Shown piece after piece: positions 244-14,487 of a stretch of 14,487 bases of DNA. The DNA is from an uncultured Oscillospiraceae bacterium (GTDB lineage: Bacteria; Bacillota; Clostridia; Oscillospirales; Oscillospiraceae). Both the position numbers and the translations under genes were made by a program. Every line of letters starts with the position of its first letter. Within the stretch, counting starts at the first letter, position 1. Where the stretch lies: positions 1-14,487 of the forward strand of contig CAYNMN010000049.1 of assembly GCA_964398305.1 (NCBI GenBank), in the 5' to 3' direction. The notes under the pieces were generated by a model. That model saw nothing but the letters and a program-made list of their open reading frames with translations. It did no database searches and was not told the DNA's origin.

Positions 244-959
244 TGCGCGCCTCCTGTTCTTACGGCATCGGCGAGGTCCACCGCGCCGGAGTAATATGCC
301 TTGCCGATTATCAGCGCCGCCGCGCCGGTCTCCCTCACGCGGCGCACGTCCTCCGCGCAGCCCACGCCGCCGGAGGCGACGATGCTCGCGTCCACGCTCC
401 TTACGAGCCGCTCAATCGCGGCAAGCGGCGGGCCGGAGAGCGTGCCGTCGGTGTCGATATCGGTGTAAATGAGCGTCCCAACGCCGAGAGCGGCCATGCT
501 TTTCGCAAATTCGTCGGCTCTGAGATCGCTGCCGCGCTCCCAGCCGTGGGTCATGACCAGCCCGTTCCTCGCGTCCACGCCGACGGCCACGCGCGCGCCG
601 TATTTTTCCACGGCGGCGGCGACAAGGTCGGGGTCGCTCACGGCGGCGGAGCCGATTACGAAGCGCCGCACGCCCATCGCGTCTGCGGCGTCGAGGTCGG
701 CCATGCTCCGCAAGCCCCCGCCGAGCTCCACGGCGAGACCGCTGCTTTTGCAGACCGAGGCGATGATGTCCGCGTTCGCGCGCACGCCGGAGCGCGCGCC
801 GTCGAGATCCACCATGTGCAGCATCACGGCGCCGGAGCGGGCGAAGTCGGCGGCGACGGCGAGCGGATCGTCCGCGACCTGACCGGCGGTGGCGAAGTCG
901 CCCCTGACGAGGCGCACGCAGCGCCCGTCCTTTAGGTCTATTGCGGGCAGTATCAGCAT
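225..959 (-). CDS. hisA: 1-(5-phosphoribosyl)-5-[(5-phosphoribosylamino)methylideneamino]imidazole-4-carboxamide isomerase HisA
   Basis: The track ORF 225..1187 has an Arg-rich, non-protein-like N-terminal extension. The real start is taken as the internal ATG at 959 ([22 protein letters not shown]...), preceded by GGGGAGGG 7 nt upstream. HisA/HisF (beta/alpha)8 motifs are present (AIDL.DG, VGGGLRS, SGGVG). It overlaps the hisH stop by 7 nt. Confidence 0.9.
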
Positions 960-1591: not shown

Positions 1592-2181
1592 AGGTCGAGC
1601 AGCCCCTTCGTGGAGGGCGCCTCGCCCGCCGCGCGCGGGTCGGGGGAGCAGGCCTCGTCGAGCGCGTGCGCGAGCGCCTTGAACGCCGCCTCGATGATGT
1701 GATGGCTGTTCACGCCCGCAAGCTGCCGCAGGTGGATGCCTGCGCCGAGCGTGCGCGCGAGCGCCTGCATGAACTCCGCGACGAGCTCCGTGTCAAAGTC
1801 GAATACCCTCTGCGAGGGGGTGGCGATGTCGCTGCCGTACCATGCCCGTCCGCCGATGTCCACGGCGGCGAGGACGAGCGCGTCGTCCATCGGGATGACG
1901 GCGCTGCCGTAGCGCTTCACTCCGAGTCTTTCGCCCAGCGCCTCGCGGAAGGCGCTGCCGAGCGCCATCGCGCAGTCCTCCACCGTGTGGTGATAGCCGG
2001 TCTTTACGTCGCCGGCGCAGCTTATTTCCAGATCGAAGCGTCCGTGGCGGGCGAAGAGCTCGAGCATGTGGTCGAGAAAGCCGCAGCCGGTTTCCACGGT
2101 GTATTTGCCGCTGCCGTCCACATTGAGGGCGACCCTGATATCGGTCTCGTTGGAGCGTCGGGAATATTGCGCTTTTCTCAT
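1588..2181 (-). CDS. hisB: Imidazoleglycerol-phosphate dehydratase HisB
   Basis: The track ORF 1588..2355 carries a spurious Arg-rich extension. The start is taken at the ATG at 2181 (MRKAQYSRRSNETDIRVALNVDGSG...), with GGAGG 6 nt upstream. IGPD motifs are present (GCGFLDHML, HHTVED, HHIIEA). It overlaps the hisC stop by 4 nt. Confidence 0.9.
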   Translation of the reverse strand: MRKAQYSRRSNETDIRVALNVDGSGKYTVETGCGFLDHMLELFARHGRFDLEISCAGDVKTGYHHTVEDCAMALGSAFREALGERLGVKRYGSAVIPMDDALVLAAVDIGGRAWYGSDIATPSQRVFDFDTELVAEFMQALARTLGAGIHLRQLAGVNSHHIIEAAFKALAHALDEACSPDPRAAGEAPSTKGLLDL

Positions 2182-3245
2182 GCTTTCGCCTCCAGTATTT
2201 CTTTTGTGGCGCCGAGGAGGGCGTCCATCTGCCCGTCCGTGCCGACGGTTATGCGCACGCAGTCGATTATCCTGGGCGTGTCCCAGTGCCGGACAAGTAT
2301 GCCGCGCTCCTTTAGCGCGAGGTAATACTCTCCGCCGCCAAGCCCCCTCGGGCACTGGGCGAAGATGAAGTTCGCGCGGCTCTCGGTGGTTTTGAAGCCC
2401 AGAGAGCGCAGAGCCTCGGACGCTCTCTCCCGCGTCGCCGCGATCCTTGCCGAGCAGTCGCGGTAATAGTCCGCGTCGCGCAGGGCCGCCGTGCCGGCGA
2501 GCAGGGTCAGGCGGTTGAGGTTATACGGGTTGAAGCTGAACTTGATCTTGTTTATGTCGGCAATTATCTCCGGCGACGAGAGCGCGTAGCCCAGTCTCGC
2601 CCCCGCGAGGCAGAAGGACTTTGAAAACGTGCCGACGATGAGCAGGTTGTCGTATTTTTTCAGCAGCGGGACACAGCTCGTGCCCCCGAAGGCGCAGTAG
2701 GCCTCGTCCACGATCACGAGCCTGTCGCGGTTTGCGGAGAGCAGGCGCTCGATCTCGGAGAGGGGCAGGCACAGCCCAGTCGGCGCGTTGGGGTTGGCGA
2801 TGATCACCGTGCCGCGCTTGTCGGCGTAATCGTCGACGCTAATGCTCCAGTCGGAGCGCAGCGGCACTATGTCCGCCGCAACGCCGAAGAGCTCGGCATA
2901 GACGGGGTAGAAGCCGTAGCTGAGATCGGGGAACGCCGCGCCGTTCGGACACAGGGCCATGAAGCAGAAGGCGAGCACCTCGTCGCTGCCGTTGCCGGCA
3001 AAGACCTGCGAGCGGTCGAGCGAGAAGTATTCGCTCATCGCGCCGCAGAGGTCGGAGGCGGCGGGGTCGCTGTACAGCCGCAGCCGCTCCACCTCGTCCG
3101 CGTTTATCGCCGCCATGACGCCCCGTGAGGGCGGGTAGGGGTTCTCGTTGGTGTTGAGCTTCACCCAACCGCGCGCGTCCCTGGGCTGTTCGCCGGGGGT
3201 ATAGGCCTCGAGCTCGTTGAGCCGGGGCAGCAGGAAGCGGCTCAT
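2178..3245 (-). CDS. hisC: Histidinol-phosphate aminotransferase HisC
   Basis: 355 aa with KLNTNENPY, GNGSDE and the FSKSFCLAGARLGY PLP-lysine region. It overlaps the hisD stop by 4 nt. Confidence 0.9.
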   Translation of the reverse strand: MSRFLLPRLNELEAYTPGEQPRDARGWVKLNTNENPYPPSRGVMAAINADEVERLRLYSDPAASDLCGAMSEYFSLDRSQVFAGNGSDEVLAFCFMALCPNGAAFPDLSYGFYPVYAELFGVAADIVPLRSDWSISVDDYADKRGTVIIANPNAPTGLCLPLSEIERLLSANRDRLVIVDEAYCAFGGTSCVPLLKKYDNLLIVGTFSKSFCLAGARLGYALSSPEIIADINKIKFSFNPYNLNRLTLLAGTAALRDADYYRDCSARIAATRERASEALRSLGFKTTESRANFIFAQCPRGLGGGEYYLALKERGILVRHWDTPRIIDCVRITVGTDGQMDALLGATKEILEAKA

Positions 3246-4528
3246 TTTATCTCACCGCGGCGCGAGAGCACGCTCCTTGCGTGACCCTCGAGCCCCTCGC
3301 GGCGGGCAAAGCGGACTATGTCGTCCGCCACGCTCGCGAGCGCTCCGGAGGAATAATATATGTAGCTTGAGCGCTTCACGAAATCGTCCACGCCGAGCGG
3401 CGATGAGAAGCGCGCCGTGCCGCCGGTGGGGAGAGTGTGGTTCGTGCCGGCGAAGTAGTCGCCGAGCGCCTCGGGGGCGCTGCGGCCGAGGAATATGCTG
3501 CCGGCGTTCACGACCTCGGGGAGATATTCAAAGGGCTCGTCCACGCAGAGCTCAAGGTGCTCCGGCGCGATGGCGTTGGAGATAGCCACGGCCTCGTGAA
3601 TGTCGCCCGTGACAATTATCCTGCCATAGTCGCGGAAGGCGGCGGTCGCAATCTCGCGTCTCGGAAGTATGGCGAGCTGGCGCTCGATCTCGGCGTCCAC
3701 CCTCCGGGCGAACGCGCTGTCGTCGCACACGAGCACGGGCACGGAGCGCTCGCCGTGCTCGGCCTGGGATATGAGGTCGGCGGCGACGCAGCCGGGGTCG
3801 GACTTCGCGTCGGCTATCACGAGGATCTCGCTCGGCCCGGCGATCATGTCGATGTCGACGGCGCCGAACACCTGCTTCTTCGCCACCGCGACGAAGATGT
3901 TGCCGGGGCCGACGATCTTATCGACGCCATTTACGCTCTCGGTGCCGTAGGCGAGGGCGCCTATCGCCTGCGCCCCGCCCATCTTATAGATGGTGTCTAT
4001 GCCGGCGACATGGGCGGCGGCAAGTATCTCGGGGCGGGCCCTGCCGTCCCTTCCGGGCGGCGTCGCCATCACAACGTCCGGCACGCCCGCGAGCTTCGCG
4101 GGGACGGCGTTCATCAGCAGGCTGCTGGGGTAGGCCGCGGTGCCGCCGGGGATATAGAGCCCCACGCGCGCGAGCGGCGTTATCTTCTGGCCGAGCACCA
4201 TGCCCTCCGCGCGGGTGTATTCAAAGCCCTCGCGCAGCTGGCGGCGGTGGAAGTCCTCTATGTTGTCCCTCGCTCTTTTGAGCGTGTCCATAAACTCCGT
4301 CGGCTCGCTCGCCACGGCCTCCGCTATCTCCTCCGCGGAGACAGACAGGGAGTCGGGGCGCGCGCCGTCAAAGCGCTCGGTATAGCGCGCCACGGCCTCG
4401 TCGCCGTTCTCGCGCACATCCGCGAGTATGGCGGCCACCGCCTTTTCCACCTTTTCGTCTGTCTGCTCCGCCGCGCGGGAAAAGAGCTTCACGGCGTCTG
4501 TGCCTCTCGCCTCGATAATCTGTGTCAT
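3242..4528 (-). CDS. hisD: Histidinol dehydrogenase HisD
   Basis: 428 aa with GPGNIFVAVAKK, AGPSEILVIAD, SQAEHG and NHTLPTGG motifs typical of HisD. It overlaps the hisZG stop by 4 nt. Confidence 0.9.
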   Translation of the reverse strand: MTQIIEARGTDAVKLFSRAAEQTDEKVEKAVAAILADVRENGDEAVARYTERFDGARPDSLSVSAEEIAEAVASEPTEFMDTLKRARDNIEDFHRRQLREGFEYTRAEGMVLGQKITPLARVGLYIPGGTAAYPSSLLMNAVPAKLAGVPDVVMATPPGRDGRARPEILAAAHVAGIDTIYKMGGAQAIGALAYGTESVNGVDKIVGPGNIFVAVAKKQVFGAVDIDMIAGPSEILVIADAKSDPGCVAADLISQAEHGERSVPVLVCDDSAFARRVDAEIERQLAILPRREIATAAFRDYGRIIVTGDIHEAVAISNAIAPEHLELCVDEPFEYLPEVVNAGSIFLGRSAPEALGDYFAGTNHTLPTGGTARFSSPLGVDDFVKRSSYIYYSSGALASVADDIVRFARREGLEGHARSVLSRRGEIK

Positions 4529-6084
4529 TTTCCTGCCTCCAGACGGGCGCGGATGTCCTCTATCCTCGCCGCTTTGAATTTACTGCTCGCCTTGTTGGCG
4601 ATGAGCCGCGCCGACACCGGCGCTATCTCCTCGAGCACGCACAGGTCGTTTTCCCGCAGCGTGCCGCCCGTTTCAACAATGTCCACGATGACGTCGGACA
4701 GGCCGATCACCGGCGCGATCTCAATGCTGCCGCTTAGACGGATGATGTCCGCAAGGCGGCTCTTGCTCTCAAGCCAGCGCGAGGCGGTGTTGGAGTATTT
4801 CGTCGCCACGCGCAGCGGCGCGTCGGGGTCGGGGCGGAGATCCGCCTTGCCGGCGCAGACCATGCGGCACTTGCCGATGCCGAGATCGAGCAGCTCATAG
4901 ACCTCCGGGCTGTGCTCGCGCAGCACGTCGCTGCCGGCGACGCCTATGTCCGCCGCGCCGCGCTCTACATATACCGGCACATCCGAGGGCTTGACGAGCA
5001 GATAACGCAGCTTCTTTCCCGGACAGTCGAACACGAGCGAGCGCGAGTTCTCCGTCAGCGCGGGACATTCGAAGCCGAGCCCGGCAAAAAGTCCGTAGGC
5101 CGCGCTGCCGAGACGCCCCTTCGGGAGCGCCACAGTGAGCATATCGTCGCCGCCGGAGGCCGCCTCGTTCCCCGTGAGTCCGCTCAGATATGCCGCAAAG
5201 CCGATAGCCGGCTGCGAGCGGCCCATGCGCCGCATGAGCCCGTCGTAGCGTCCGCCGGAGAGCACCGCGCTGGGCGCGGAGTCTATGTAGCCGTTGAAGA
5301 TCACGCCGTTGTAGTAGTCGAGCACGCCGCCCACCGAGAGGTCGAGCCGCAGATGCGAGTCCGCCTCGCCGCCGCCTATGGCCGCGTAAAGCGCTTCGAG
5401 CTCGCCTACGGCCGCGCGCAGCTCGTCCGTGCAGGCGAGCCTTCCCGCGGCGGCGAGAGTTTCGGGGAAGGGGCCGGAGAGTCGGCACAGCTCCATGAGA
5501 GCGTCGGCCTTTTCCCCGGCGATCTCCGCAAGCTCCGAGGGGCTCTTGCGCGAGAGCGCGTCGAGCGCCGCGCCGGCCGCCGCGTCGTCAAGCCCGACGT
5601 CACGCATCCACGCGGCGGCAAAGCCGACGTGCCCTACGTCCAGCAGGTAGTCGCCGCCCATCTCCGCAAGGCTCCGCAGAGCAAGGCGCAGCACCTCGGC
5701 CTCCCCCGCGCCGTCCTCGCCGCCGATATACTCCAGCCCCGCCTGGCGGATCTCGCGCAGCTCGCCGCTGCCCGGCTCCGTGCGGAACACATTTTCGCAG
5801 TAATAGAGCCGCCGAGCTCCGCCGCCGGGGGGAGTGTTCTTTATTATGCTCAGCGTGACGTCGGGCTTTAGCGCCATCAGCCGCCCGCGCGGGTCGGTGA
5901 AGGTAACTATGCCGTCGCTCTTCAGAAAGCTCCTGTTGCCGTAGTAGGTGTCGTAGGGCTCAAACCGGTCGCTGCTGTACTTTTCGTAGCCCGCCTTGGA
6001 ATAGAGCCTTCTCAGCCGGAGCGTCAGCCGCTCCGCGCCCGAGAGAAATCCGAGATCGTCCATTTGCTTCTCCGTTTTCTTCAT
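4525..6084 (-). CDS. hisZ-hisG: ATP phosphoribosyltransferase regulatory subunit HisZ (res. 1-314) in one continuous frame with short-form ATP phosphoribosyltransferase HisG (res. 315-519); apparent HisZ-HisG fusion
   Basis: Residues 1-314 look like a HisRS paralogue (GRLYYCENVFRTEPGSGELREIRQAGLEYIGG motif-2-like, GGRYDGLM motif-3-like). Residues 315-519 start MLTVALPKGRL at the internal ATG (plus-strand cat 5140-5142) and are short-form HisG (~205 aa). Reading across 5143-5165 shows no stop codon between the two parts (..EAASGGDDMLTVAL..). A likely alternative hisZ start is the ATG at 6063 (MDDLGF...), which has ACGGAG 8 nt upstream. Confidence 0.8.
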   Translation of the reverse strand: MKKTEKQMDDLGFLSGAERLTLRLRRLYSKAGYEKYSSDRFEPYDTYYGNRSFLKSDGIVTFTDPRGRLMALKPDVTLSIIKNTPPGGGARRLYYCENVFRTEPGSGELREIRQAGLEYIGGEDGAGEAEVLRLALRSLAEMGGDYLLDVGHVGFAAAWMRDVGLDDAAAGAALDALSRKSPSELAEIAGEKADALMELCRLSGPFPETLAAAGRLACTDELRAAVGELEALYAAIGGGEADSHLRLDLSVGGVLDYYNGVIFNGYIDSAPSAVLSGGRYDGLMRRMGRSQPAIGFAAYLSGLTGNEAASGGDDMLTVALPKGRLGSAAYGLFAGLGFECPALTENSRSLVFDCPGKKLRYLLVKPSDVPVYVERGAADIGVAGSDVLREHSPEVYELLDLGIGKCRMVCAGKADLRPDPDAPLRVATKYSNTASRWLESKSRLADIIRLSGSIEIAPVIGLSDVIVDIVETGGTLRENDLCVLEEIAPVSARLIANKASSKFKAARIEDIRARLEAGK

Positions 6085-6183
6085 TATGATAACTAATTAG
6101 CATATTATCACATTACCCTATTAAAGTAAAGTGGGAGAAACGTAAAAATTCCGGCTCACGGGCGCGGCCGTTTGTGGATAATA
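6085..6183 (-). promoter_or_regulatory. AT-rich intergenic region upstream of the his operon; presumed his promoter, with a possible spoVAC terminator hairpin at ~6146-6165 followed by a U-run
   Basis: A 99-bp AT-rich island (ttattatgataactaattagcatattatcacattaccctattaaag) in otherwise GC-rich DNA, directly upstream of the hisZ start. On the minus strand, cggccgcgcccgugagccgg followed by aauuuuua sits just after the spoVAC stop. No sigma motifs were rigorously assigned. Confidence 0.3.
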
Positions 6184-6627
6184 CTATATTAGGCTCAAAA
6201 CGTACAGCACCAGCCCGTAAACAACACTCGCGCCTACGCCGTAGACGATCACGGGCCCGGCGATTACGAACATCTTCGCGGCCGTGCCGGTTATGAGCCC
6301 CTCCGTCTTGAACTCAAGGGCGGGGGAAACGACGGCGTTGGCGAAGCCGGTTATCGGCACGAGCGTACCGGCTCCGGCGAACTTCGCCGCGTCGTCATAT
6401 ACGCCCAGCCCCGTGAGCAGCGCGCCGAGGAAGATGAGCGACATCGAAGCCGCCGCGCCCGCATCCTTTTCGGAAAGGCCGAGCGCCGCGCCGCCCGACA
6501 GCAGCGCCTGCCCGGCGCAGCAGATGAGCCCGCCCACGAGAAAGGCGCGCAGCATATCGCCCCATATCGGGGAGGGCGGGGATCTTTCCGCGACGTATTT
6601 TGCGTATTGCTCCCTGGTCATTTTCAT
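6184..6627 (-). CDS. spoVAC: Stage V sporulation protein AC-like membrane protein (SpoVAC/SpoVAEB family)
   Basis: 147 aa. The N-terminus MKMTREQYAKYVAERSPPSP....LRAFLVGGLICCAGQAL matches the SpoVAC signature (..KAFLVGGLIC.IGQ). The remainder is Gly/Ala-rich and hydrophobic, consistent with a channel-like membrane protein. No spoVAD or spoVAE follows it. Confidence 0.6.
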   Translation of the reverse strand: MKMTREQYAKYVAERSPPSPIWGDMLRAFLVGGLICCAGQALLSGGAALGLSEKDAGAAASMSLIFLGALLTGLGVYDDAAKFAGAGTLVPITGFANAVVSPALEFKTEGLITGTAAKMFVIAGPVIVYGVGASVVYGLVLYVLSLI

Positions 6628-6679
6628 AAAAAAGCACCTCCGCGGTATTATCTGCGGAGGCGCCGAAAATATTAACTTT

Positions 6680-7090
6680 TCAGTCTATATCGACGGAGAG
6701 ATTGTCGATCCCGTGCTCGTCGAACTCGGCGAGGTATTCGTCCATGCGGTCTGTCAGCTCGGTGAAGTCCTCGGGGTCGGTGTCCTCAAGGTGCATATCG
6801 CGCCGGGCCATCTCCTCGGCGAGAATATCAAAGAATACGGCGTCCTCATAGTCGGCGATTGCGTCGTGTATTCCGCCCTCCTCATATTCCTTGGAGGGAA
6901 AGACGTGGCCGTACCAGCTTTGGTAGAGCTTGCTCAAGCCGTTTTTGGAGCAGAGGGCAAAAAGCTTTTCCTGCAGCTCGTCATAATCCGCAAAGCGATC
7001 CTCGCCCCTTGTAGAGTTGAGCACCCAGTTGCCTATATAGACCATGTCCAGCAGCCTGCGAAATTCCTTGTTGGTAAGCTCGATATTCAT
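6680..7090 (-). CDS. Hypothetical acidic protein (136 aa)
   Basis: The track ORF 6680..7102 starts at a GTG that overlaps the GGAGG. The ATG at 7090 (MNIELTNKEFRRLLDMVYIGNW...) with GGAGG 11 nt upstream is preferred. The C-terminus is highly acidic (EDTDPEDFTELTDRMDEYLAEFDEHGIDNLSVDID). No recognisable domain. Confidence 0.5.
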   Translation of the reverse strand: MNIELTNKEFRRLLDMVYIGNWVLNSTRGEDRFADYDELQEKLFALCSKNGLSKLYQSWYGHVFPSKEYEEGGIHDAIADYEDAVFFDILAEEMARRDMHLEDTDPEDFTELTDRMDEYLAEFDEHGIDNLSVDID

Positions 7091-7415
7091 ATCCCGGCAC
7101 ACCTCCTCGCGTCCGTATCGGGGGATACTGATTGATATGCTGTATTATAGCACGACCACACAAAAATTCTACACAAAAATTACAAGGAATCATCAGACGG
7201 TGTTGGCTTATTATACAATCGGCGTCCCGCCCGAAATGCCCAGATACCGCCGCGGCGCGGCGCACAAAAAAAGTGGTGTTAATCAGACGGCAAGGAAAGA
7301 CAATGACTGACGGAGATAATATACTGGACTACAAATAGTGTTAACCAGACGACAACAGCTGTTTTGGAATGGGGGGATAAGTTTGGTTGTTTTGCAGGGG
7401 GAGGAAAAGCGCGCA

Positions 7416-7520
7416 ATGTGCGGCGAGCTTGCGCGGCATCTGCCGAAGCTGCGGGAGATCATGAAGCTCTCGCAGGGGGAGCTTGCGGAGCTCTGCGGTA
7501 TTTCGCGCACGAGGATATGA
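7416..7520 (+). pseudogene. Truncated XRE-type helix-turn-helix gene fragment (34 codons)
   Basis: MCGELARHLPKLREIMKLSQGELAELCGISRTRI* contains the helix2-turn-helix3 pattern (LSQGELAELCGISRTRI) of XRE/Cro-C1 HTH domains but stops within the domain. It lies in a lower-GC decayed stretch. Confidence 0.35.
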
Positions 7521-7545
7521 CACGGACATCTTCACTGAACCAACA

Positions 7546-7938
7546 ATGAAGGGCAAACTTGGCGTAAATGCCATGAAAGCAGATCATCACCTATACGACC
7601 ATATTCTGTATGATTCCACCAACGAGCGGGATTTTGCAACAGAGCTTGATACGCGAACCGAGGTGGCAGTCTATGTAAAACTGCCGAACGGATTCTATAT
7701 CTCCACACCGGTTGGTAAATACAATCCTGACTGGGCAATTGCGTTCAAAGAAGGCAGTGTCAAGCATATCTATTTTGTCGCAGAGACAAAAGGCTCTATG
7801 AATTCTATGCAGCTTCGTATGGTTGAGGAGGCAAAAATACACTGTGCCAGGGAGCACTTCAAAGCCATTAGCTCTGACAGCATAGTGTATGATGTGGTGG
7901 ATAGTTACGAGAGTTTGTTGAACAGGGTTATGAGATAA
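7546..7938 (+). CDS. PD-(D/E)xK nuclease-domain fragment resembling the C-terminal endonuclease module of restriction-enzyme Res subunits; probable gene remnant
   Basis: The ~130-aa ORF starting MKGKLGVNAMKADHHLYDHILYD contains ...YNPDWAIAF...HIYFVAETKGS..., a classical PD...(D/E)xK arrangement. It is too short for a complete restriction enzyme, abuts the truncated HTH fragment, and sits in DNA with GC well below the window average. Confidence 0.4.
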   Translation: MKGKLGVNAMKADHHLYDHILYDSTNERDFATELDTRTEVAVYVKLPNGFYISTPVGKYNPDWAIAFKEGSVKHIYFVAETKGSMNSMQLRMVEEAKIHCAREHFKAISSDSIVYDVVDSYESLLNRVMR

Positions 7939-8193
7939 GCGAATTGCAGAAAAAGGGACATGCCGTCATTGTTCAAAGGCTGCAAATTGATTTAAAAACC
8001 CATGATGGATAATGTGACACATTCGCGGTCTGAACGGAGCGGAGCTTGTAGACCTGATCCTGAAGAATTGCGAAAGACTGAGTGAAAAGTATCAGAGGCT
8101 GATACCGCTGAAGATGGTATATATTCCTGCGGCTCCGGACCGGGCATAGAGCCCGCGGGCATTTAATTCCGCATATAAGTAGGACGACACACC

Positions 8194-9183
8194 ATGCCGC
8201 TGCATTTTATACAATCGGATATCGTTGACGTCAGTGCCGACGCGATCGTGAGCTGCGGGAACAGCGCCATGACCGACGAGGGCGGGGTGAGCGGCTGCAT
8301 ATACCGGGCCGCGGGCAGCGCCGTTGCGGACGAGTGCGCGAGGATCGGCGGCTGTGCCCCGGGCGACGCGGTGGCGACCTCCGCCGGAGAGCTCAAGGCA
8401 AGGTATATCATCCACACCGTTGGCCCGATCTGGGACGGCGGGCGCTCAGGCGAGGAGTTCGTCCTGCGTCAGTGCTATAAGCGCGTCCTCGCCAAGGCCG
8501 CGGAGCTCGGCTGTGCCTCCGTCGCCATGCCGCTCATCGCCTCCGGGCGGTACGGGTATCCCCGGGAGCTCGCAAAGCGCGTCGCCTCCGAGGAGATCAG
8601 CGCGTTCCTCGAAGCTCACGGCGACATGGAGATCACGATGGTGCTGAGCGGCGAGGCCGGGCATATCAGCCGCGTGAGGGCGTCCAACGCCGACCTGTCC
8701 ACGTTCATCGCGAGAAACTTTATAGAGCCCGCGAGTGCCGACGAGCATGAGCCGTACTACGACCGGGACAGGACACGGTTCAGCATCTCGCCGCCGGGCG
8801 CCGGGCTCTACAAGACGCTCGACGAGATGCTCGCCGCGCGCAGTAAGCCGTTCAGGGATATGCTCCGCGATCTCATGACCGAGGCGCAGGTGTCGGACGC
8901 CGAGCTGTACAACAAGGCGGGCGTCTCGCGCCAGACCTTCAACAAGATATGGAACCAGGCCGGCTACAAGCCGAGCAAGAACACCGCCCTGTCGCTTGCC
9001 ATCGGTTTGGAGCTCAACTACGACCAGACGCTCGACCTGCTCGGCACGCTGGGCTACACGCTCTCGCACAGCGTGCAGTTCGACATGATCGTGGAGTACT
9101 TCATAAGGCGCGGCTGCTACGATCTCTTCGACATCAACTATTCCCTCGACGATTACGGCGAGCCGCCGCTCGGCCTTGTATGA
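8194..9183 (+). CDS. Macro domain (MacroD/YmdB-type ADP-ribose binding/hydrolase) fused to a C-terminal XRE-family HTH DNA-binding domain
   Basis: The N-terminus carries SCGNSAMTDEGGVSGCIYRAAG (cf. MacroD N.AN..L.GGGV.GAIHRAAG), YIIHTVGPIWDGG and ASVAMPLIASGRYGYP (cf. SIAFPAISTGVYGYP). The C-terminus carries LRDLMTEAQVSDAELYNKAGVSRQTFNKIWN followed by KPSKNTALSLAIGLELNYDQTLDLLGTLGY, the five-helix XRE pattern. A rho-independent terminator follows the gene. Confidence 0.75.
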   Translation: MPLHFIQSDIVDVSADAIVSCGNSAMTDEGGVSGCIYRAAGSAVADECARIGGCAPGDAVATSAGELKARYIIHTVGPIWDGGRSGEEFVLRQCYKRVLAKAAELGCASVAMPLIASGRYGYPRELAKRVASEEISAFLEAHGDMEITMVLSGEAGHISRVRASNADLSTFIARNFIEPASADEHEPYYDRDRTRFSISPPGAGLYKTLDEMLAARSKPFRDMLRDLMTEAQVSDAELYNKAGVSRQTFNKIWNQAGYKPSKNTALSLAIGLELNYDQTLDLLGTLGYTLSHSVQFDMIVEYFIRRGCYDLFDINYSLDDYGEPPLGLV

Positions 9184-9218
9184 GGCTCTCCGCCCGCGCG
9201 TAAAATATAATAATGTAT

Positions 9219-9253
9219 CCCTCGATCGGTCAAACGGTCGGGGGATGTTTTTT
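9219..9253 (+). terminator. Rho-independent terminator of the macro-HTH gene
   Basis: ccctcgatcg-gtcaaa-cggtcggggg forms a 10-bp stem (two G-U pairs) with a 6-nt loop, followed by atg and tttttt (9248-9253). It sits 36 nt after the stop and directly abuts operator copy 1. Confidence 0.45.
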
Positions 9254-9270
9254 GTCAATCGCGGATTGAC
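9254..9270. promoter_or_regulatory. Dyad operator copy 1, GTCAATC-gcg-GATTGAC (7-3-7 inverted repeat), in the promoter region of the vWA gene
   Basis: Perfect 7-bp inverted arms with a 3-bp spacer. The right arm contains a -35-like TTGACC (9266-9271). A -10-like TATCCT lies 20 bp downstream. The vWA start codon is 83 nt downstream. Confidence 0.5.
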
Positions 9271-9352
9271 CACGGTGTGCAGGGAGTGAAGTATCCTATG
9301 ATCACAGCGGTAGAGCGCAGCTCCCGCAGCAATAAAAACGGAGGATGCTATT

Positions 9353-9994
9353 ATGAACGAAAACCTGACAGAGCTTGTGTTCATACTCGACCGCAGCGGA
9401 TCTATGTGCGGCATGGAGGAGGACACCATCGGCGGCTTCAACTCGATGCTCGACAAGCAGAAGAAGGAGCCGGGCGACGCGCTGGTCACCACGGTGCTCT
9501 TCGACAACGAGTACGAGACCCTGCACGACAGAGCGCCGCTGCAGTGCGTGAGAGCGATGACGGCGAACGACTACTCGGCGCGGGGCAGCACGGCGCTGCT
9601 CGACGCGGTCGGCAGAGCGATCTCCCTCATCCGGATCGCCCAGAAGCACACGCCGGAGGCCGAGCGCCCCGGCAAGACGGTCGTGGTCATCATCACGGAC
9701 GGCTATGAGAATTCGAGCCGCGAGTACAGCATCGAGCAGGTGCGCGAAATGATCTCAAAGCAGACCGGGTTGGGCTGGGAGTTCCTGTTCCTCGGCGCGA
9801 ACATGGACGCCGTGCAGGCCGCCGGCAGGATGAACATCCGCGCCGACAGAGCCGCGACCTACCGGCCCGACGGCGCCGGCACCCGCGCCAACTACGACGC
9901 CGTGGACATGGCCATCCGCTACTCCCGAGCCGGACGCCACTTCTCCGACGAGTGGAGGGCGCCGGTCGACGAGCGCAACAACAGGGACTATTAA
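9353..9994 (+). CDS. Small von Willebrand factor A (vWA) domain protein (213 aa)
   Basis: LVFILDRSGSM (MIDAS D-x-S-x-S), GSTALLDAVGRAI and VVVIITDGYEN motifs. GGAGGA lies 7 nt upstream of the ATG. Confidence 0.8.
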   Translation: MNENLTELVFILDRSGSMCGMEEDTIGGFNSMLDKQKKEPGDALVTTVLFDNEYETLHDRAPLQCVRAMTANDYSARGSTALLDAVGRAISLIRIAQKHTPEAERPGKTVVVIITDGYENSSREYSIEQVREMISKQTGLGWEFLFLGANMDAVQAAGRMNIRADRAATYRPDGAGTRANYDAVDMAIRYSRAGRHFSDEWRAPVDERNNRDY

Positions 9995-10000
9995 AACTCG

Positions 10001-10203
10001 GCGCCCGTTTGAGCTCAAGCAGCGCGAGCTCTGCGCCCTTAGGTTCCCTCGCGTATTCCCTGAACATAGTGAAGGGAATACGCTGAGGGACCTTAGGAGG
10101 CGGTGACGTATCGGCAAACACGGCGCCGGGAACATTCACCGAGCTTTGCACGTCGGTAGTATCCCGCCTGAGCTCAAGAAAAAAGTGTCAATCGCGGATT
10201 GAC
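10001..10203 (+). repeat. Structured intergenic repeat copy 1: long imperfect hairpin (10037-10097), AGGAGG, ~90 nt conserved tail, and dyad operator copy 2
   Basis: Begins 7 nt after the vWA stop. The hairpin is cccttaggttccctcgcgtattccct / loop gaacatagtga / agggaatacgctgagggaccttagg (~23 bp with two single-nucleotide bulges and a T-T mismatch). AGGAGG follows the 3' arm directly. It is ~90% identical to copy 2. A 10-bp direct repeat tgagctcaag occurs at 10009-10018 and 10169-10178. Confidence 0.7.
10187..10203. promoter_or_regulatory. Dyad operator copy 2, GTCAATC-gcg-GATTGAC, upstream of the 62-aa ORF
   Basis: Identical 17-mer. TTGACC is at 10199-10204 and a -10-like TACATT lies 20 bp downstream. 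The ORF start is at 10280. Confidence 0.5.
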
Positions 10204-10279
10204 CCGGGCGAGGGACGGATTTGGTACATTATGAATAGAAGCTGCAAAAACGACGGCTCGAAAGAAAGGGAGGACTGCT

Positions 10280-10468
10280 ATGGATGCTTACGGGAAAACG
10301 AAATTCAACACCTGCCTTGACGAATTCGAAAGAACACTGACCGACCTGCGCAGGTGCGGGTCGCTCACAGAGAAGGATCTCCGCATACTCTGCCGCCGGG
10401 TTGAGGAGATGCGCCGGGCCGGCAACGACAGCCCGGACATGACAGGTCGGAGCCGGCTGCGCCCGTGA
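10280..10468 (+). CDS. Small hypothetical protein (62 aa), predicted helical and charged
   Basis: Strong RBS AAAGGGAGG 7 nt upstream of the ATG. MDAYGKTKFNTCLDEFERTLTDLRRCGSLTEKDLRILCRRVEEMRRAGNDSPDMTGRSRLRP. It lies between the two repeat copies, and its stop codon overlaps the start of repeat copy 2. Confidence 0.5.
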   Translation: MDAYGKTKFNTCLDEFERTLTDLRRCGSLTEKDLRILCRRVEEMRRAGNDSPDMTGRSRLRP

Positions 10469-10648
10469 GCCTGCGCCCTTAGGTCCCCTCGCGTATTCCC
10501 TGAACATAGTGAAGGGAATACGCCGAGGGACCTTAGGAGGCGGTGCCGTGCCGACAAACAAGGCGCCGGGAACATTTACCGACCTCTGCACGTCGGTAGT
10601 ATTCCGTCCGCGATCCGAAACAAGAAAAAGTGTCAATCGCGGATTGAC
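10459..10648 (+). repeat. Structured intergenic repeat copy 2: hairpin 10477-10537, AGGAGG, conserved tail, and dyad operator copy 3
   Basis: Aligns to copy 1 with ~11 substitutions and two small indels over ~175 bp. The bulged base in the hairpin changes in both arms (t to c on the left, t to c on the right) but the predicted structure is preserved. Confidence 0.7.
10632..10648. promoter_or_regulatory. Dyad operator copy 3, GTCAATC-gcg-GATTGAC, at the head of a ~430-nt leader preceding the SPFH gene
   Basis: Identical 17-mer. TTGACC is at 10644-10649 and a -10-like TATGAT (5/6 to TATAAT) lies 20 bp downstream. The next plus-strand gene starts at 11115. Confidence 0.45.
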
Positions 10649-11114
10649 CATGACCGTAAACGGATACGGTATGATACGTTTATAAGGTGAGCTACGCGAA
10701 TCTTAGAAACAGAAGATGAGCTATTGCGAACCTTTTTAGCTGAGGCCAAGTAGCCGGTCCGTGGCGTCGATGAGTCGCCGGACCGCGTCGCCGGGAGCCA
10801 TAAACTCCGGCGTGCAGGCCAAGGCCAGGCAACCGGTAGGGTAGATGAAGTTTCCCGAGGCCGCATAAAGTCCGCCCGGACGCGTAAGACCCCTTGTCCG
10901 GAACGTGAAGTGAGCCTGCTGAGGACGGATACCGTCGGACAGTCCGAAAAGCCGGGACACAGTCCCCGCCGGAGGGTCAGCCGACTCAATTCCTTCGCCG
11001 CTCATCAGCGTGGACGCGGCCGACAAATAATCTCCGCTTGACGGCGCTCCGGCCGACAGCGGTACATATAGACCGACGACATTCGCTGCGGATAATGAAA
11101 GGAGTGCTGCACAC

Positions 11115-12215
11115 ATGACAATTACAATTAAAGACGGAGAGCGCGGGGTGTTGACGAGGGACGGGTGCTTCCTCAAACTACTCACACCCGGAAGACACAG
11201 CGGCGACGACGACTGCGAGGTCGAGGTCGTCAAAGCCACCCCCGGAGAGAGATACAACTCTCTCCACCCTGTCGAGCCGCTGCTCGGCGACCCCGAAGCC
11301 TCGAAACAACTGACGACCGTGGATGTGGCGCCCAACGAACTCGTGTTCGTGTCACACTACGGAGCCGCCAGACTCGCCCTCTCCACCGGGCACTATGTGC
11401 TCTGGACACTGGGCCGCGACCTGGATGTCGAACGCGTCGACATCACCGACCCCCTCGTGGACGAGGAGACGCTTTTGCGCCTCACCCCCGCCCTCGCGAA
11501 AAGCCTACTCAACTGGGAAAGCGTCGCCGAATACGAACAGGGACTGCTGTTCGTGAACGGCGTACTCGCAAAAACCCTCGACCCGGGGCGCTACGCCCTG
11601 TGGGCCAACTCCCTCGCCGACTACGAAGTCAAAACCGTCGACCTGCGCCTTCAGCAACTCGACGTGAGCGGCCAGGAGCTCCTGACCGCCGACAAGGTCA
11701 CGGTCCGCCTGAATGTCGTCTGCACATTCAAAGTGACCGACACCCTCCGCGCCGCGACCGGGTTCTCCAACCACGCGGAGCAACTGCGCACACTTGTCCA
11801 ACTCGCACTGAGACGCGCCGTGTGCGCTCTCACACTCGACGAGCTCCTTGCGAGCCGTGAGGATGTCGCCGAGGGCATCCTCTACGAACTAAAGACCCGT
11901 GAAGCCGAATACGCCGTGACATTCACGGACTCGGGAGTGAAGGACGTAATCCTTCCCGGCGAAATAAGGGACATAATGAACTCGGTCCTACTCGCCGAAA
12001 AACGCGCACAGGCAAACGTAATCGTCCGCCGAGACGAGGCCGCTTCCATGCGGAACAAACTCAATTCAGCGCGATTACTCGAAGAAAACCCGACACTAAT
12101 GCGCCTGACCGAACTGGAGTCCATTGAGAGAATCTGCGAGCACGTGGGGTCCCTCAGCGTGGGCGGTAGCGAAAACCTATTGGGCGAGCTTGCGAAGCTC
12201 GCGGGCAAGAGCTGA
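11115..12215 (+). CDS. SPFH/band-7 (stomatin/prohibitin/flotillin-like) domain protein, with no N-terminal transmembrane helix
   Basis: The core reads VDLRLQQLDVSGQELLTADKVTVRLNVVCTFKVTD...EQLRTLVQLALRRAVCALTLDELLASREDV...VKDVILPGEIRDIMNSVLLAEKRAQANVIVRRDEAASMRNKLNSARLLEENPTLMRLTELESIERI. Two N-terminal SPFH-start-like motifs are seen (DGERGVLTRDG..LLTPGRH and EQGLLFVNGVLAKTLDPGRYAL). AAAGGAG lies 10 nt upstream. No hydrophobic segment is present. Confidence 0.75.
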   Translation: MTITIKDGERGVLTRDGCFLKLLTPGRHSGDDDCEVEVVKATPGERYNSLHPVEPLLGDPEASKQLTTVDVAPNELVFVSHYGAARLALSTGHYVLWTLGRDLDVERVDITDPLVDEETLLRLTPALAKSLLNWESVAEYEQGLLFVNGVLAKTLDPGRYALWANSLADYEVKTVDLRLQQLDVSGQELLTADKVTVRLNVVCTFKVTDTLRAATGFSNHAEQLRTLVQLALRRAVCALTLDELLASREDVAEGILYELKTREAEYAVTFTDSGVKDVILPGEIRDIMNSVLLAEKRAQANVIVRRDEAASMRNKLNSARLLEENPTLMRLTELESIERICEHVGSLSVGGSENLLGELAKLAGKS

Positions 12216-12275
12216 CGCTCTGCCCGGAGTTCGGGGGCGAACACCTCGCCCCCCGGAAATCGCACACATTTGTCC

Positions 12276-12305
12276 TTGACACACGAATTGTTCACACCGC
12301 ATAAT
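12276..12305 (+). promoter_or_regulatory. Sigma-A-like promoter for the ARH operon
   Basis: TTGACA (12276-12281), an 18-bp spacer, then CATAAT (12300-12305). GGGAGG is at 12313-12318 and the ATG at 12328. No copy of the GTCAATC dyad is present. Confidence 0.4.
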
Positions 12306-12327
12306 GGATAAAAGGGAGGCTGTGCAT

Positions 12328-13113
12328 ATGAAAGGCGCAATACTCGGAGACATAGTCGGCTCAGTCTATGAGCGACACAACACAAAGAGCAAGGCGTTTC
12401 CTCTGTTCTCGCCCGTGGGTCGCTTCACGGACGACACGGTGCTGACGTGCGCCGTGGCGAAGGCGTTAATGAGCGACGACGCCGACGTCGACCTTCTCGA
12501 AGAGCTGACCTACCGGCTGCAGCAGTTCGGGCTGCTCTACCCGCACGCGGGGTACGGCGGAGCCTTCAAGCGGTGGTTCCGCTCCGACTACCCGCAGCCG
12601 TACAACTCCTGGGGCAACGGCGCGCCTATGCGCTGCTCGCCGGCCGGCTTCGTTGCCGGCAGCGCGGAGAAGGCCTACGCGCTCGGCGAGGCCACGGCGG
12701 AGCCCACACACAACCACCCGGAGGGGCTTAAGGCCGCGGGGCTCACGGCGGAGCTCGTCTGGCGAGCCCGCCACGGCGAGAGCCGGGAGACTCTGCGCGA
12801 GAGGGCGTTTGAGCTCTATGAGCTGCCCGCGCTCGACGAGGTGCGCCCGACCTACCGCTTCCACGTCTCCAGTCAGGAGACAATGCCCGTCGCCCTCGCC
12901 GCGTTCTTCGAGAGCACGGACTTTGAGGACGCAATACGCAACGCGATCTCCGTCGGCGGAGACAGCGACACCATCGGCGCCATCACCGGCGCAATAGCCG
13001 AGGCGTACTACGGCGTGCCGGACGAGCTCTGGCGGAAGGCGACACTCTACCTCGACGACTACCTGCTGAAAATCGTTACCGAGTTCTATGCCTTCGCCGA
13101 GGCGCGGAGCTGA
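12328..13113 (+). CDS. ADP-ribosylglycohydrolase family protein (ARH/DraG-like), paralogue 1
   Basis: The start is taken at MKGAILGDIVGS (the track ORF begins 24 nt earlier, but GGGAGG sits 8 nt before this ATG and paralogue 2 starts at the same motif). ARH family motifs are present: FTDDTVLTCAVAKAL, GNGAPMRCSPAGF, THNHPEG and GGDSDTIGAITGAIAEAYYG. Confidence 0.8.
   Translation: MKGAILGDIVGSVYERHNTKSKAFPLFSPVGRFTDDTVLTCAVAKALMSDDADVDLLEELTYRLQQFGLLYPHAGYGGAFKRWFRSDYPQPYNSWGNGAPMRCSPAGFVAGSAEKAYALGEATAEPTHNHPEGLKAAGLTAELVWRARHGESRETLRERAFELYELPALDEVRPTYRFHVSSQETMPVALAAFFESTDFEDAIRNAISVGGDSDTIGAITGAIAEAYYGVPDELWRKATLYLDDYLLKIVTEFYAFAEARS
12653..13033 (+). repeat. 381-bp tract 100% identical to 13479-13859 (internal part of ARH paralogue 1); near-identity extends back to 12591
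   Basis: Direct base-by-base comparison at an offset of 826 bp. The tract 12591-13033 versus 13417-13859 shows only 3 mismatches, all within the first 62 bp. The flanking coding sequence on both sides is strongly diverged. Confidence 0.9.
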
Positions 13114-13150
13114 ACGGGTTCATTCAAACCGGACTATAAGGAGGGCAAAA

Positions 13151-13939
13151 ATGAAGGGTGCAATAATAGGCGACATCGTGGGCTCGATCTACGAGTTCGA
13201 CAATCTGCGTCAGAAGGACTTCCCGTTCTTCGGGAAGAAGTGCAAGTTCACCGACGACAGCGTGATGACCTGCGCTGTGGCCGAGGCGCTCATGAACGCA
13301 GACAGGACCGACGGCGACCTTTTCGAGGGGCTTGTTGAGAGCATGCAGGAGCTCGGCAACGCTTATCCGTACCGCGGGTATGGGCTGCGCTTCGGCGACT
13401 GGCTGGACTCCGACGACCCGCAGCCGTACAACTCCTGGGGCAACGGCGCGCCTATGCGCTGCTCACCGGCCGGGTTCATTGCCGGCAGCGCGGAGAAGGC
13501 CTACGCGCTCGGCGAGGCCACGGCGGAGCCCACACACAACCACCCGGAGGGGCTTAAGGCCGCGGGGCTCACGGCGGAGCTCGTCTGGCGAGCCCGCCAC
13601 GGCGAGAGCCGGGAGACTCTGCGCGAGAGGGCGTTTGAGCTCTATGAGCTGCCCGCGCTCGACGAGGTGCGCCCGACCTACCGCTTCCACGTCTCCAGTC
13701 AGGAGACAATGCCCGTCGCCCTCGCCGCGTTCTTCGAGAGCACGGACTTTGAGGACGCAATACGCAACGCGATCTCCGTCGGCGGAGACAGCGACACCAT
13801 CGGCGCCATCACCGGCGCAATAGCCGAGGCGTACTACGGCGTGCCGGACGAGCTCTGGCAGGAGGCGGCGCTCTACCTCGACGCCCGCCTGCTGAAAATA
13901 GTCAGCGACTTCTACGCCTTCGCCGAGACGAAGGCGTAA
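13151..13939 (+). CDS. ADP-ribosylglycohydrolase family protein (ARH/DraG-like), paralogue 2
   Basis: The start is taken at MKGAIIGDIVGS, with AAGGAGG 6 nt upstream. The N-terminal ~95 aa are about 50% identical to paralogue 1, the middle ~145 aa are identical, and the last ~25 aa diverge again. It lies 37 nt after paralogue 1. Confidence 0.8.
   Translation: MKGAIIGDIVGSIYEFDNLRQKDFPFFGKKCKFTDDSVMTCAVAEALMNADRTDGDLFEGLVESMQELGNAYPYRGYGLRFGDWLDSDDPQPYNSWGNGAPMRCSPAGFIAGSAEKAYALGEATAEPTHNHPEGLKAAGLTAELVWRARHGESRETLRERAFELYELPALDEVRPTYRFHVSSQETMPVALAAFFESTDFEDAIRNAISVGGDSDTIGAITGAIAEAYYGVPDELWQEAALYLDARLLKIVSDFYAFAETKA
13479..13859 (+). repeat. 381-bp tract 100% identical to 12653-13033 (internal part of ARH paralogue 2)
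   Basis: See the paired feature. The identical tracts also generate identical spurious antisense ORFs in the six-frame track (12743..12934 and 13569..13760). Confidence 0.9.
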
Positions 13940-13957
13940 GACAACAAAGGAGGCATT

Positions 13958-14347
13958 ATGGATCGGGATTCGTGTGCCATAGCAAAACAACGCTACATAG
14001 ACTTTTCGACTGAAGAGAATCGGAGGCTGTTTTTCGAAACGATCCGTTTGTGCGCGGAAGACAGGACCTGGATCCACTCCCGTGGGAGAGATGATTCCGG
14101 CCGGACTGCGTTGTGTGTTGTGATTACTGATGAAGGCGTGTTCGGAGCGCTTTTTACCTCTATCGAGAATGCGGTAAGGATACCAAGGCAGGTTCAGGAG
14201 CAGTATCCGGCTGTCATATGCTCGCCCATAAACCATGTGATAGACGCGGTAATGGAATATGGTCTTAAGGGGATTGTCTTTGACCCATACAGCGCGCAGC
14301 CTATCTTCATTGAAAGAAATAATTTGAAAGCAATACTCCAATACTAA
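13958..14347 (+). CDS. Hypothetical protein (129 aa), lower GC than its neighbours; a faint resemblance to small SseB/YbjN-like or immunity-type proteins is not demonstrable here
   Basis: AAAGGAGG 5 nt upstream of the ATG and only 18 nt after the ARH-2 stop, so it is likely co-transcribed. The sequence MDRDSCAIAKQRYIDFSTEENRRLFFETIRLCAEDRTW...GIVFDPYSAQPIFIE has mixed composition. GC is about 48% against about 66% for the ARH genes. Confidence 0.55.
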   Translation: MDRDSCAIAKQRYIDFSTEENRRLFFETIRLCAEDRTWIHSRGRDDSGRTALCVVITDEGVFGALFTSIENAVRIPRQVQEQYPAVICSPINHVIDAVMEYGLKGIVFDPYSAQPIFIERNNLKAILQY

Positions 14348-14487
14348 ACGTATTCCGGGTCAGCGAGGATTGTTTAGGGAAAACAAATCAGAGAGGAAGA
14401 GTGATAATTGGATAACGTTACAACATTGACCACAGCACTGATCGACAAGCTCAACGAGGATGTAAGAAACGGGCTTTACGAGCACGG

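Follow-up and report, generated by a model that had tools for sequence, protein, structure and literature searches.

A conserved dyad at a fixed distance from −10 elements as the predicted operator of a Macro–helix-turn-helix regulator in an Oscillospiraceae contig and related loci

A contig from an uncultured Oscillospiraceae bacterium (CAYNMN010000049.1, assembly GCA_964398305.1), of which we analysed positions 1 to 14,487 (the window), carries three identical copies of a 17-bp dyad within 1.4 kb, which raises the question of which protein reads them and what it does to the promoters that they accompany. An earlier note on this DNA had placed the copies upstream of a vWA gene, an open reading frame (ORF) of 62 aa, and the long leader of an SPFH gene, each with a −10-like hexamer at a fixed offset. 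An exact string search of the window found the 17-mer GTCAATCGCGGATTGAC at 9254–9270, 10187–10203, and 10632–10648 and no further copies, even at 2–3 mismatches; in 200 dinucleotide-preserving shuffles, matches at ≤2 mismatches averaged 0.01 and never reached three, so the three copies are beyond chance, as had been claimed. The identity extends over 19 nt (TGTCAATCGCGGATTGACC). The distances from the dyads to the gene starts also agree with the note: copy 1 is 99 nt 5′ of the vWA start (9353), copy 2 is 93 nt 5′ of the start of the 62-aa ORF (10280), and copy 3 is 483 nt 5′ of the SPFH start (11115). In all three copies, a −10-like hexamer starts exactly 20 nt past TTGACC, and a pyrimidine–purine (Y-R) step lies 7 nt past each hexamer (CA at 9303–9304, TA at 10236–10237, and TA at 10681–10682). 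The dyads and their predicted promoters are as follows.

9254..9270: dyad copy 1 (GTCAATC-GCG-GATTGAC), predicted operator of the vWA promoter, with homologous dyads 5′ of vWA in 63 related loci
9292..9297, + strand: −10 hexamer TATCCT of promoter 1, predicted start at A9304 (CA step)
10187..10203: dyad copy 2, predicted operator of the promoter of the 62-aa ORF, its geometry being that of the family consensus
10225..10230, + strand: −10 hexamer TACATT of promoter 2, with TGG just before it (extended −10), predicted start at A10237
10632..10648: dyad copy 3, predicted operator of promoter 3, which would feed the long leader and SPFH-ARH-ARH-SseB
10670..10675, + strand: −10 hexamer TATGAT of promoter 3, predicted start at A10682

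Is this arrangement peculiar to the window? We compared it with related loci, about 130 in all, drawn from genomes of Bacillota, from metagenomes, and from one complete phage. A scan of GTDB (one genome per species), using as query an alignment of the protein encoded 5′ of copy 1, in which a Macro domain is fused to one of helix-turn-helix (HTH) type, yielded 80 loci from Bacilli, Clostridia, Negativicutes, and others at 34–42% identity; a pattern-based metagenome scan, aimed at the S-R-Q-type recognition helices described below, added 50 more. The best identities to the window protein were 42% among GTDB representatives and 54% among JGI contigs. Across these ~130 loci, genes for the same C-terminal XRE-type HTH domain, usually fused to Macro, stand beside T-GTCnn-N7-nnGAC-C dyads. 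About 60 of the 80 GTDB loci have a vWA orthologue 3′ of the regulator gene, and the intergenic region of the GTDB loci almost always contains TGTCGC-N7-GCGACC; the exact string GTCGC-N7-GCGAC occurs 61 times in 808 kb, against ~0.8 expected. The gene 3′ of the dyad is vWA in 63 cases, an ADP-ribosylglycohydrolase (ARH) gene in three, the regulator gene itself in two, and a gene for an HD_4 phosphohydrolase in one, and the dyad stays with vWA even where other genes part vWA from the regulator gene. Further targets encode calcineurin-like (Metallophos) and DSP-like phosphatases, a poly(A)-polymerase/CCA-type enzyme, and SIMPL.

Alignment of 71 canonical sites gave the consensus A-W-W-T-GTCGC-yT..cA.-GCGAC-C, followed by 20 positions that are nearly information-free (~0 bits at positions 22–35), T-A-t-n-a-T at positions 39–44, and Y-R at positions 50–51 (69–70 of the 71 sites). 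Of 75 canonical sites, 72 have TAnnnT starting exactly 20 nt past the dyad (position 39), where the background rate per position is 1.4%, and 40 of the 49 entries listed for the Q-class sites have it there too. More than 100 sites, from several phyla and in front of at least six kinds of target gene, thus show an invariant distance from dyad to hexamer, with the intervening sequence free to vary. All three copies in the window match every feature of the consensus, including CA or TA at positions 50–51; the same 20-nt geometry in the relatives means that the fixed offset reported in the earlier note is a conserved, family-wide property. The nearest parallel comes from another sample (L007), where a Macro-HTH gene whose product is 51% identical is followed by GTCAAC-agccg-GTTGACC, 20 nt, TATCCT, and a vWA gene. 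From these alignments, the window 17-mer is a lineage variant of a widely conserved element.

Two further observations concern the family of sites. In the 71 canonical sites, the bases at motif positions 50–55 are also conserved (Y-R-T-A/C-A-A, often CATCAA; 9303–9308, 10236–10241, and 10681–10686 in the window), a conservation that goes past mere start-site preference. The phage locus (2429–5302 of PV036457.1, a complete Caudoviricetes genome from human faeces) consists of a Macro-HTH gene, a 151-aa ORF, the dyad, vWA, and an HD_4 phosphohydrolase gene; its canonical dyad TGTCGCTTCCAAAGCGACC, at 3924–3942, is followed by 20 nt and TATTCT. The vWA family is common in Streptomyces, Microbacterium, and Pseudomonas phages (217 records).

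The candidate reader of the dyads is the Macro-HTH protein, for which two features are needed here.

8194..9183, + strand: gene for a 329-aa Macro protein with a C-terminal XRE-type HTH, the proposed dyad-binding regulator (Pfam Macro PF01661, E = 1.7e-33; HTH_26 weak; synteny with the dyads)
8914..8949, + strand: codons of the predicted recognition helix, residues 241–252 (KAGVSRQTFNKI), with S245-R246-Q247 in place of the D-R-K/R of the family

The AlphaFold2 model of its C-terminal 125 aa has a pLDDT of 94.5, and the nearest folds found by Foldseek all belong to the XRE family (DdrO, CapH, ClgR, P22 c2, 434 Cro/repressor, C.AhdI, SinR, and lambda cI; target TM-score 0.64–0.78, root-mean-square deviation 2–3 Å, probability up to 1.0, E-values just 0.15–2); both point to a five-helix XRE-type HTH fold. 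A profile search against PDB sequences was marginal (CylR2, E = 0.22), and when the C-terminal 133 aa were used alone, a word-indexed protein search gave no matches. An exhaustive profile search at E ≤ 1e-3 collected 8,345 representatives of the HTH domain at 50% identity. The domain is C-terminal in all but three of the 150 matches listed, and the only public names of family members are "macro domain-containing protein" and "O-acetyl-ADP-ribose deacetylase". In helix 2, Asp D235 is nearly invariant and is no more than a lead for a contact with sigma region 4 or the alpha subunit of polymerase.

Most Macro domains of the family keep the MacroD-type motif GGVDGAIH. The window protein has GGVSGCIY, and its clade, which includes P0002 and P0003, has GGVSG-x-I-Y/F (Macro domain, 8194–8640); the catalytic Asp and His of the motif are lost and the glycine-rich (phosphate-binding) loops are kept, which suggests that the Macro domain of this clade may be a binding-only sensor. 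A separate observation concerns the linker between the two domains: 8702–8794 carries 16 substitutions relative to all six other assemblies of the species, with the surrounding 3 kb otherwise identical, which suggests a recombination patch or a hypervariable linker.

Does the protein recognise the dyad beside its gene? The recognition helix is nearly invariant (A-N-I/V-D-R-K/R-L-F-S-K-I) where the half-site is GTCGC/GCGAC, and the helices of the window and of L007 have S-R-Q instead of D-R-K/R. Helices with D-R-K/R go with GC at half-site positions 13–14 (GCGAC) in 67 of 72 sites; those with S/T-R-Q go with TT (TTGAC) in 43 of 48 and with GC in none of the 48 in the automated table. Among non-redundant helix/site combinations, the contrast is 18 of 23 versus 0 of 22 (Fisher p = 2e-8, uncorrected for phylogeny). 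Reading of G by Lys or Arg and of A by Gln is ordinary recognition chemistry, and Q247, at a position held by Lys or Arg in most relatives, is a candidate recognition residue. The window thus holds a symmetric operator-like site, within the 14–20 bp usual for an operator, beside a regulator gene, and site specificity tracks the helix across the family (71-site motif; 67/72 vs. 0/48).

About 20 of the loci from the metagenome scan (L122–L141; e.g., L136, 3890–5029) encode the HTH domain as a stand-alone protein of 130 aa, with neither Macro nor vWA. There, GTCAAAT-N3-ATTTGACC and the 20-nt/−10 layout come straight after the stop codon; the dyad precedes a gene for an HD-like protein of 217 aa, and some loci have a second, divergent dyad promoter. 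The presence of the dyad beside Macro-less HTH genes makes the HTH domain its sole constant companion. Synteny and helix co-variation together argue that the dyad is very probably the operator of the adjacent Macro-HTH protein, and the proposal of a regulatory dyad that defines a small regulon and is probably bound by this protein has held up.

What would binding do at such a promoter? At spacers of 16–18 nt, the best −35 match averages 1.44 of 6, versus 2.43 in random sequence; it falls below random because these positions hold the conserved GACC. In the window, a standard sigma-70 scan with the same spacers found no promoter at the dyads, consistent with a missing −35. The −10 hexamers are moderate (mean 4.6 of 6), many of them modest (e.g., TATCCT and TAAGAT), and the TG of an extended −10 is present in just 24 of 75 sites. 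With no −35, a moderate −10, and little TG, these promoters are expected to be intrinsically weak. The TTGACC that the earlier note took for a near-consensus −35 is better read as the right half-site of the regulator: it is GCGACC in most relatives, and no −35 lies at 16–18 nt.

The dyad is centred near −42, that is, 42 nt 5′ of the conserved Y-R step if transcription starts at motif position 51. The classical example of class II activation is lambda cI at OR2/PRM, an XRE-type dimer that sits over the −35 region and contacts sigma region 4 (PMC1874639); for CRP, class II sites have their centre at −41.5 (PMC1874639). The sites described here lie over the −35 region near −41.5 of the predicted start, where the −35 is poor or absent; a 17-bp XRE operator at −42 with no −35 matches the geometry of class II activation. 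Of the two architectures offered in the earlier note, the activator-dependent one thus gains from the geometry and from promoter weakness, from which we infer it; the MerR-like one does not stand, given the position of the dyad, the unconserved spacer, and the XRE fold.

The model that we consider probable, in which binding, start sites, sign of regulation, and ligand are predictions, runs as follows. A dimer of the Macro-HTH protein would read the half-sites T-GTCAA(TC) and (GA)TTGAC-C through its C-terminal XRE-type HTH domain, within a composite promoter made up of the dyad, 20 unconserved nt, a TAnnnT −10, and a start 7 nt on. The bound dimer would replace the missing −35 contact and recruit sigma-A RNA polymerase in a class II-type activation, and sensing, probably of ADP-ribose or an ADP-ribosylated product, would fall to the N-terminal Macro domain. 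The window regulon would comprise three units, namely vWA, the 62-aa ORF, and SPFH-ARH-ARH-SseB, and a strong hairpin before each promoter would block read-through from upstream, leaving expression dependent on the regulator alone. On the sign of regulation, promoter geometry and weakness incline us modestly towards activation.

Several points weigh against this model or limit its support, all of which is sequence comparison. Copies 2 and 3 lie inside a direct duplication of ~215 nt (10031–10244 vs. 10471–10689; 90% identity 5′ of the dyad, 100% over the 25 nt around it, and ~60% 3′ of it) and are therefore paralogues, not independent sites; given this shared ancestry, their identity alone is no evidence of selection. 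The strain comparison (L001–L006) is uninformative on selection, since the intergenic regions are identical; the six other assemblies of the species have the same arrangement and every dyad within contig reach. The leader of 433 nt separates promoter 3 from SPFH, and expression of SPFH from this promoter is a prediction. The fixed spacing could have been inherited with a promoter cassette rather than imposed by activator contact; the lack of indels in an unconstrained 20-nt spacer argues against mere inheritance. On the binding protein, the Foldseek E-values (0.15–2) are weak, and the Pfam HTH_26 match, at 17.9 bits, is below the cut-off of 22. Read by eye, the sites beside one S-R-Q protein (L096) are GTAAC..GCGAC, and the P0003 locus, with an S-R-Q helix and no vWA neighbour, shows no clear dyad. 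The switch from Lys/Arg to Gln may represent few independent events.

The strongest competing explanation keeps the same sites and the same protein and reverses the sign: the dimer, at −50 to −33, would repress, and could occlude polymerase on extended −10 promoters until ADP-ribose or a related ligand released it. Precedent is on its side. A known regulator that joins an ADP-ribose-binding, enzyme-like domain to an HTH, NrtR, is a repressor (PMC2330246), the Nudix and WYL regulators of ARG-centred systems are predicted to act negatively (PMC9503650), and repressors predominate among the nearest folds of the window protein (DdrO, CapH, SinR, and the 434 and P22 repressors). The TG of an extended −10, present in a third of the promoters, could let these work without a −35. 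However, with no −35, no TG in two thirds of the promoters, and many modest −10s, little transcription would follow from derepression; neither the −10 nor the start site is ever overlapped by the operator; and steric repression does not call for a distance kept constant across more than 100 sites with at least six kinds of target. Repression is thus possible, and we regard it as clearly less likely than activation.

That another factor encoded elsewhere binds the dyad, with the Macro-HTH protein a mere neighbour, would fit the lack of an upstream dyad at the window regulator gene itself. This is very unlikely given that dyad and HTH gene co-occur in ~130 loci of Bacilli, Clostridia, Negativicutes, and a phage, that the half-site bases shift together with the recognition helix, and that the stand-alone HTH loci share nothing else.

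Less likely still is that, instead of serving as a duplex operator, the palindrome works as an RNA or DNA hairpin, such as a terminator or a protein-binding stem in RNA. Any read-through RNA would include the dyad, and for copies 2 and 3 a minus-strand scan lists GTCAATCCGCGATTGAC with a T-run after it. The genes here all lie on the + strand, though, and copy 1 has no T-run on either strand, so the terminator reading was rejected: the T-run is confined to the non-coding strand of copies 2 and 3. In canonical dyads, the stem is of 5 bp and the loop of 7 nt, and a T-run is not consistently present. As for an RNA stem, complementarity of the pairs in the N7 spacer is close to the base-frequency expectation (26 vs. 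24, 50 vs. 53, and 32 vs. 25), and G-T is not favoured over A-C, the two mismatches being equally frequent; the half-site bases are invariant in sequence rather than co-varying; and the outermost positions are asymmetric (T left, C right), oriented toward the regulated gene, which, like the fixed −10 distance, is a promoter feature. The absence of spacer covariation, on which the RNA hairpin was rejected, together with the invariant half-sites and the T...C asymmetry, argues for a duplex DNA site.

The possibility that TTGACC is the true −35 of a MerR-style promoter with a 20-nt spacer, or that the copies are a functionless local duplication or mobile repeat, is just as improbable: TTGACC matches TTGACA at 5 of 6 positions, MerR-type promoters likewise have 19–20 nt from a TTGAC-like hexamer to the −10, and copies 2 and 3 sit in a 215-nt duplication with a large hairpin, but in 68 of 75 canonical sites the hexamer at this place (mostly GCGACC) shares just 3 of 6 positions with TTGACA, the hexamer here appears to be a regulator half-site, the dyad lies outside (5′ of) a spacer that is itself unconserved, the regulator is of XRE fold, no MerR-family regulator gene is present in the window, the repeat that carries the hairpin (D1, below) occurs twice in this lineage only, the dyad is conserved across phyla without it, and the flanks of copy 1, which abuts the terminator of the upstream gene (9215–9248), are unrelated to those of copies 2 and 3.

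Returning to class II-type activation by the Macro-HTH protein, one further property of the promoters bears on how transcription would be kept under its control. Pairing between the regulated gene's Shine-Dalgarno region and a segment that lies between the dyad and the predicted start is found in 62 of 69 related promoters. These embedded hairpins are strong, with a median z-score of −3.7, and often have a U-run behind them, and their arms vary among loci with pairing kept. The −10 and the start lie inside the hairpin; examples among L008–L087 are L032 (7056–7137), L018 (4925–5003), and L047 (8139–8219). Since transcripts from the dyad promoter lack the 5′ arm, the hairpin could form solely in read-through RNA, where it would terminate or translationally silence the message, with expression left to the dyad promoter. 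Window promoters 1 and 2 have no embedded hairpin (z-scores −0.3 and +2.2). Each window promoter is preceded by a separate strong hairpin, which is consistent with the same insulation logic.

9215..9248, + strand: intrinsic terminator of the Macro-HTH gene (stem of 13–14 bp, −22 kcal/mol, T-run), abutting dyad 1
10037..10097, + strand: hairpin of the D1 repeat (25-bp arms, ~−48 kcal/mol), past the vWA stop and before dyad 2
10477..10537, + strand: second copy of the D1 hairpin (~−49 kcal/mol), past the stop of the 62-aa ORF and before dyad 3

D1 is a direct repeat of 145 nt (10031–10175 vs. 10471–10615; 90% identical) whose hairpins lack a U-run. Its two copies occur, among the loci fetched, only in the locus of the window species. 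D1 probably blocks read-through and marks a duplicated cassette of hairpin plus dyad promoter. Against Rfam at E ≤ 1, the whole window gave no match in the dyads, D1, or the long leader.

The genes around the dyads are in keeping with a local unit. On the + strand, the order is Macro-HTH, vWA, the 62-aa ORF, a non-coding stretch of 433 nt, SPFH/slipin, two ARH genes, and an SseB-like gene; the left flank holds, on the minus strand, the his operon and spoVAC, then a type III restriction gene remnant.

9353..9994, + strand: vWA gene (213 aa, DxSxS MIDAS motif), the conserved primary target (Pfam VWA_CoxE/VWA; PHROG 7371, E = 3.5e-56)
10280..10468, + strand: 62-aa ORF, lineage-specific target of promoter 2 (Shine-Dalgarno GGGAGG 8 nt 5′; third-codon-position GC 0.75)
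10682..11114, + strand: non-coding leader of the SPFH operon (433 nt, GC-rich, no codon periodicity, folding z-score −1.4, no Rfam match)
11115..14347, + strand: probable promoter 3 operon, SPFH-ARH-ARH-SseB (Pfam, NCBIfam, and gene calls in L001; SPFH-ARH linkage also found elsewhere)
11115–12215, + strand: SPFH/slipin gene
12304–13113 and 13088–13939, + strand: ADP-ribosylglycohydrolase ORFs (gene caller starts 12328 and 13151)
13958–14347, + strand: gene for an SseB-like protein

The 62-aa ORF has no family match in Pfam, NCBIfam, PADLOC, or PHROG, and its cluster at 90% identity has a single member. The leader (10682–11114) contains no ORF with a coding signal and no terminator, folds no better than shuffles, and shows no clear conservation with the sole related SPFH upstream fragment compared; it may represent decayed coding sequence or an RNA element that has escaped recognition. 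No terminator-like site was found on the + strand between copy 3 and 11115. The two adjacent ARH genes (12304–13939) are ~78–80% identical to each other, which indicates a recent tandem duplication. Neither an ADP-ribosyltransferase nor a sirtuin gene lies beside them in the window or the 6 kb beyond, the scope of that search. SPFH/slipin homologues at two other loci (L143, 1071–10167; L146, 3417–8309) occur with RtcB, and L143 additionally encodes WYL/WCX regulators, two metallophosphatases, and an ARH, the WYL-regulated form of an ARG-centred system. The SPFH operon of the window lineage appears to have been put under Macro-HTH control by gaining a dyad promoter.

At 7417–7938, a truncated XRE-like ORF of 45 aa is followed by a 130–150-aa fragment of a type III restriction enzyme. 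The fragment matches the C-terminal endonuclease domain only (PF19778; residues 862–986 of 989 in PADLOC REase_III), and this region is a gene remnant beside the island. It gives the sole PADLOC 2.0 match (7483–7938); Macro-HTH, vWA, the 62-aa ORF, SPFH, ARH, and SseB had none.

Macro domains are best known as readers and erasers of ADP-ribose, and the present family, now annotated as enzymes only, would link them to direct transcriptional control in bacteria and phages. A broader proposal remains tentative: that a large, unnoticed family, with ~8,000 representatives at 50% identity, senses ADP-ribose or ADP-ribosylation through Macro, acts as a strict class II activator of promoters without a −35, and governs a response that reverses ADP-ribosylation in Bacillota and some of their phages. 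If this is true, vWA, ARH, the phosphatases, and SPFH would form an inducible system for ADP-ribosylation reversal; promoters of most relatives, lying inside a terminator/anti-Shine-Dalgarno hairpin, would have only regulator-initiated transcripts translated; and the Lys/Arg-to-Gln switch would re-target the regulator from GTCGC to GTCAA. An anonymous palindrome becomes a testable code, with an operator consensus, a fixed geometry, a candidate residue, and a candidate ligand class. The motif permits regulon prediction by simple pattern search, and cultured carriers include Peribacillus asahii, Neobacillus drentensis, Planococcus glaciei, Coprococcus comes, and Selenomonas ruminantium. The promoter-inside-terminator arrangement is a compact insulation device that may serve synthetic biology.

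Full-text literature searches returned no description of a Macro-HTH regulator or of the dyad motif, and we compared the predicted system with the known ones that it resembles most. Lambda cI at OR2/PRM, and likewise other XRE-type class II activators, among them restriction-modification C-proteins such as C.AhdI, places an XRE dimer on a 17-bp palindrome over the −35 region near −42, as here (PMC1874639). Activation by lambda cI and the C-proteins is geometry-dependent (PMC1874639); here, activation is a prediction. Unlike lambda cI, which uses cooperative tandem sites, the present system has a single operator per promoter and gives no sign of a dual repressor role; its DNA-binding domain is C-terminal and fused to Macro, and its host is Gram-positive, with sigma-A.

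NrtR shares with the Macro-HTH protein the joining of an enzyme-derived ADP-ribose-binding domain to a DNA-binding domain, a palindromic operator, and a local regulon linked to NAD or ADP-ribose (PMC2330246). The two are analogous, not homologous: the Macro-HTH protein has Macro in place of Nudix and an XRE domain in place of a winged helix, and the genes that it targets (vWA, ARH, phosphatase, and SPFH) are not those of NAD synthesis. NrtR represses from operators whose overlap with the promoter varies in position, in contrast to the fixed position found here.

The gene content points to the ARG-centred systems, which Iyer, Burroughs, and Aravind (2022) predicted to counter viral ADP-ribosylation (PMC9503650, section 3.8). 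Those systems combine an ARG uncoupled from any ADP-ribosyltransferase or sirtuin, vWA and SseB "chaperones", Macro, phosphatases of the HD, calcineurin, and rhodanese types, restriction endonuclease remnants, and a one-component regulator (PMC9503650). Both accessory "chaperones", vWA and SseB, are present in the window, and HD_4, Metallophos, and DSP-like phosphatases stand behind dyads in related loci. The described systems come from Actinobacteria, Planctomycetes, and Proteobacteria and have Nudix-HTH or WYL-HTH regulators (PMC9503650), whereas the loci studied here are from Bacillota and have Macro-HTH, so that the sensor is a Macro domain and not Nudix or WYL; the constant core here is Macro-HTH plus vWA, not ARG. 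If our reading is correct, Bacillota too would have a form of the predicted ARG-centred systems, one with a third sensor type. Taken together, the one-component regulator, the palindromic operator, and the local regulon are familiar, and the sensor domain, the strict −42 geometry, the recognition switch, and the promoter-in-terminator arrangement appear to be new.

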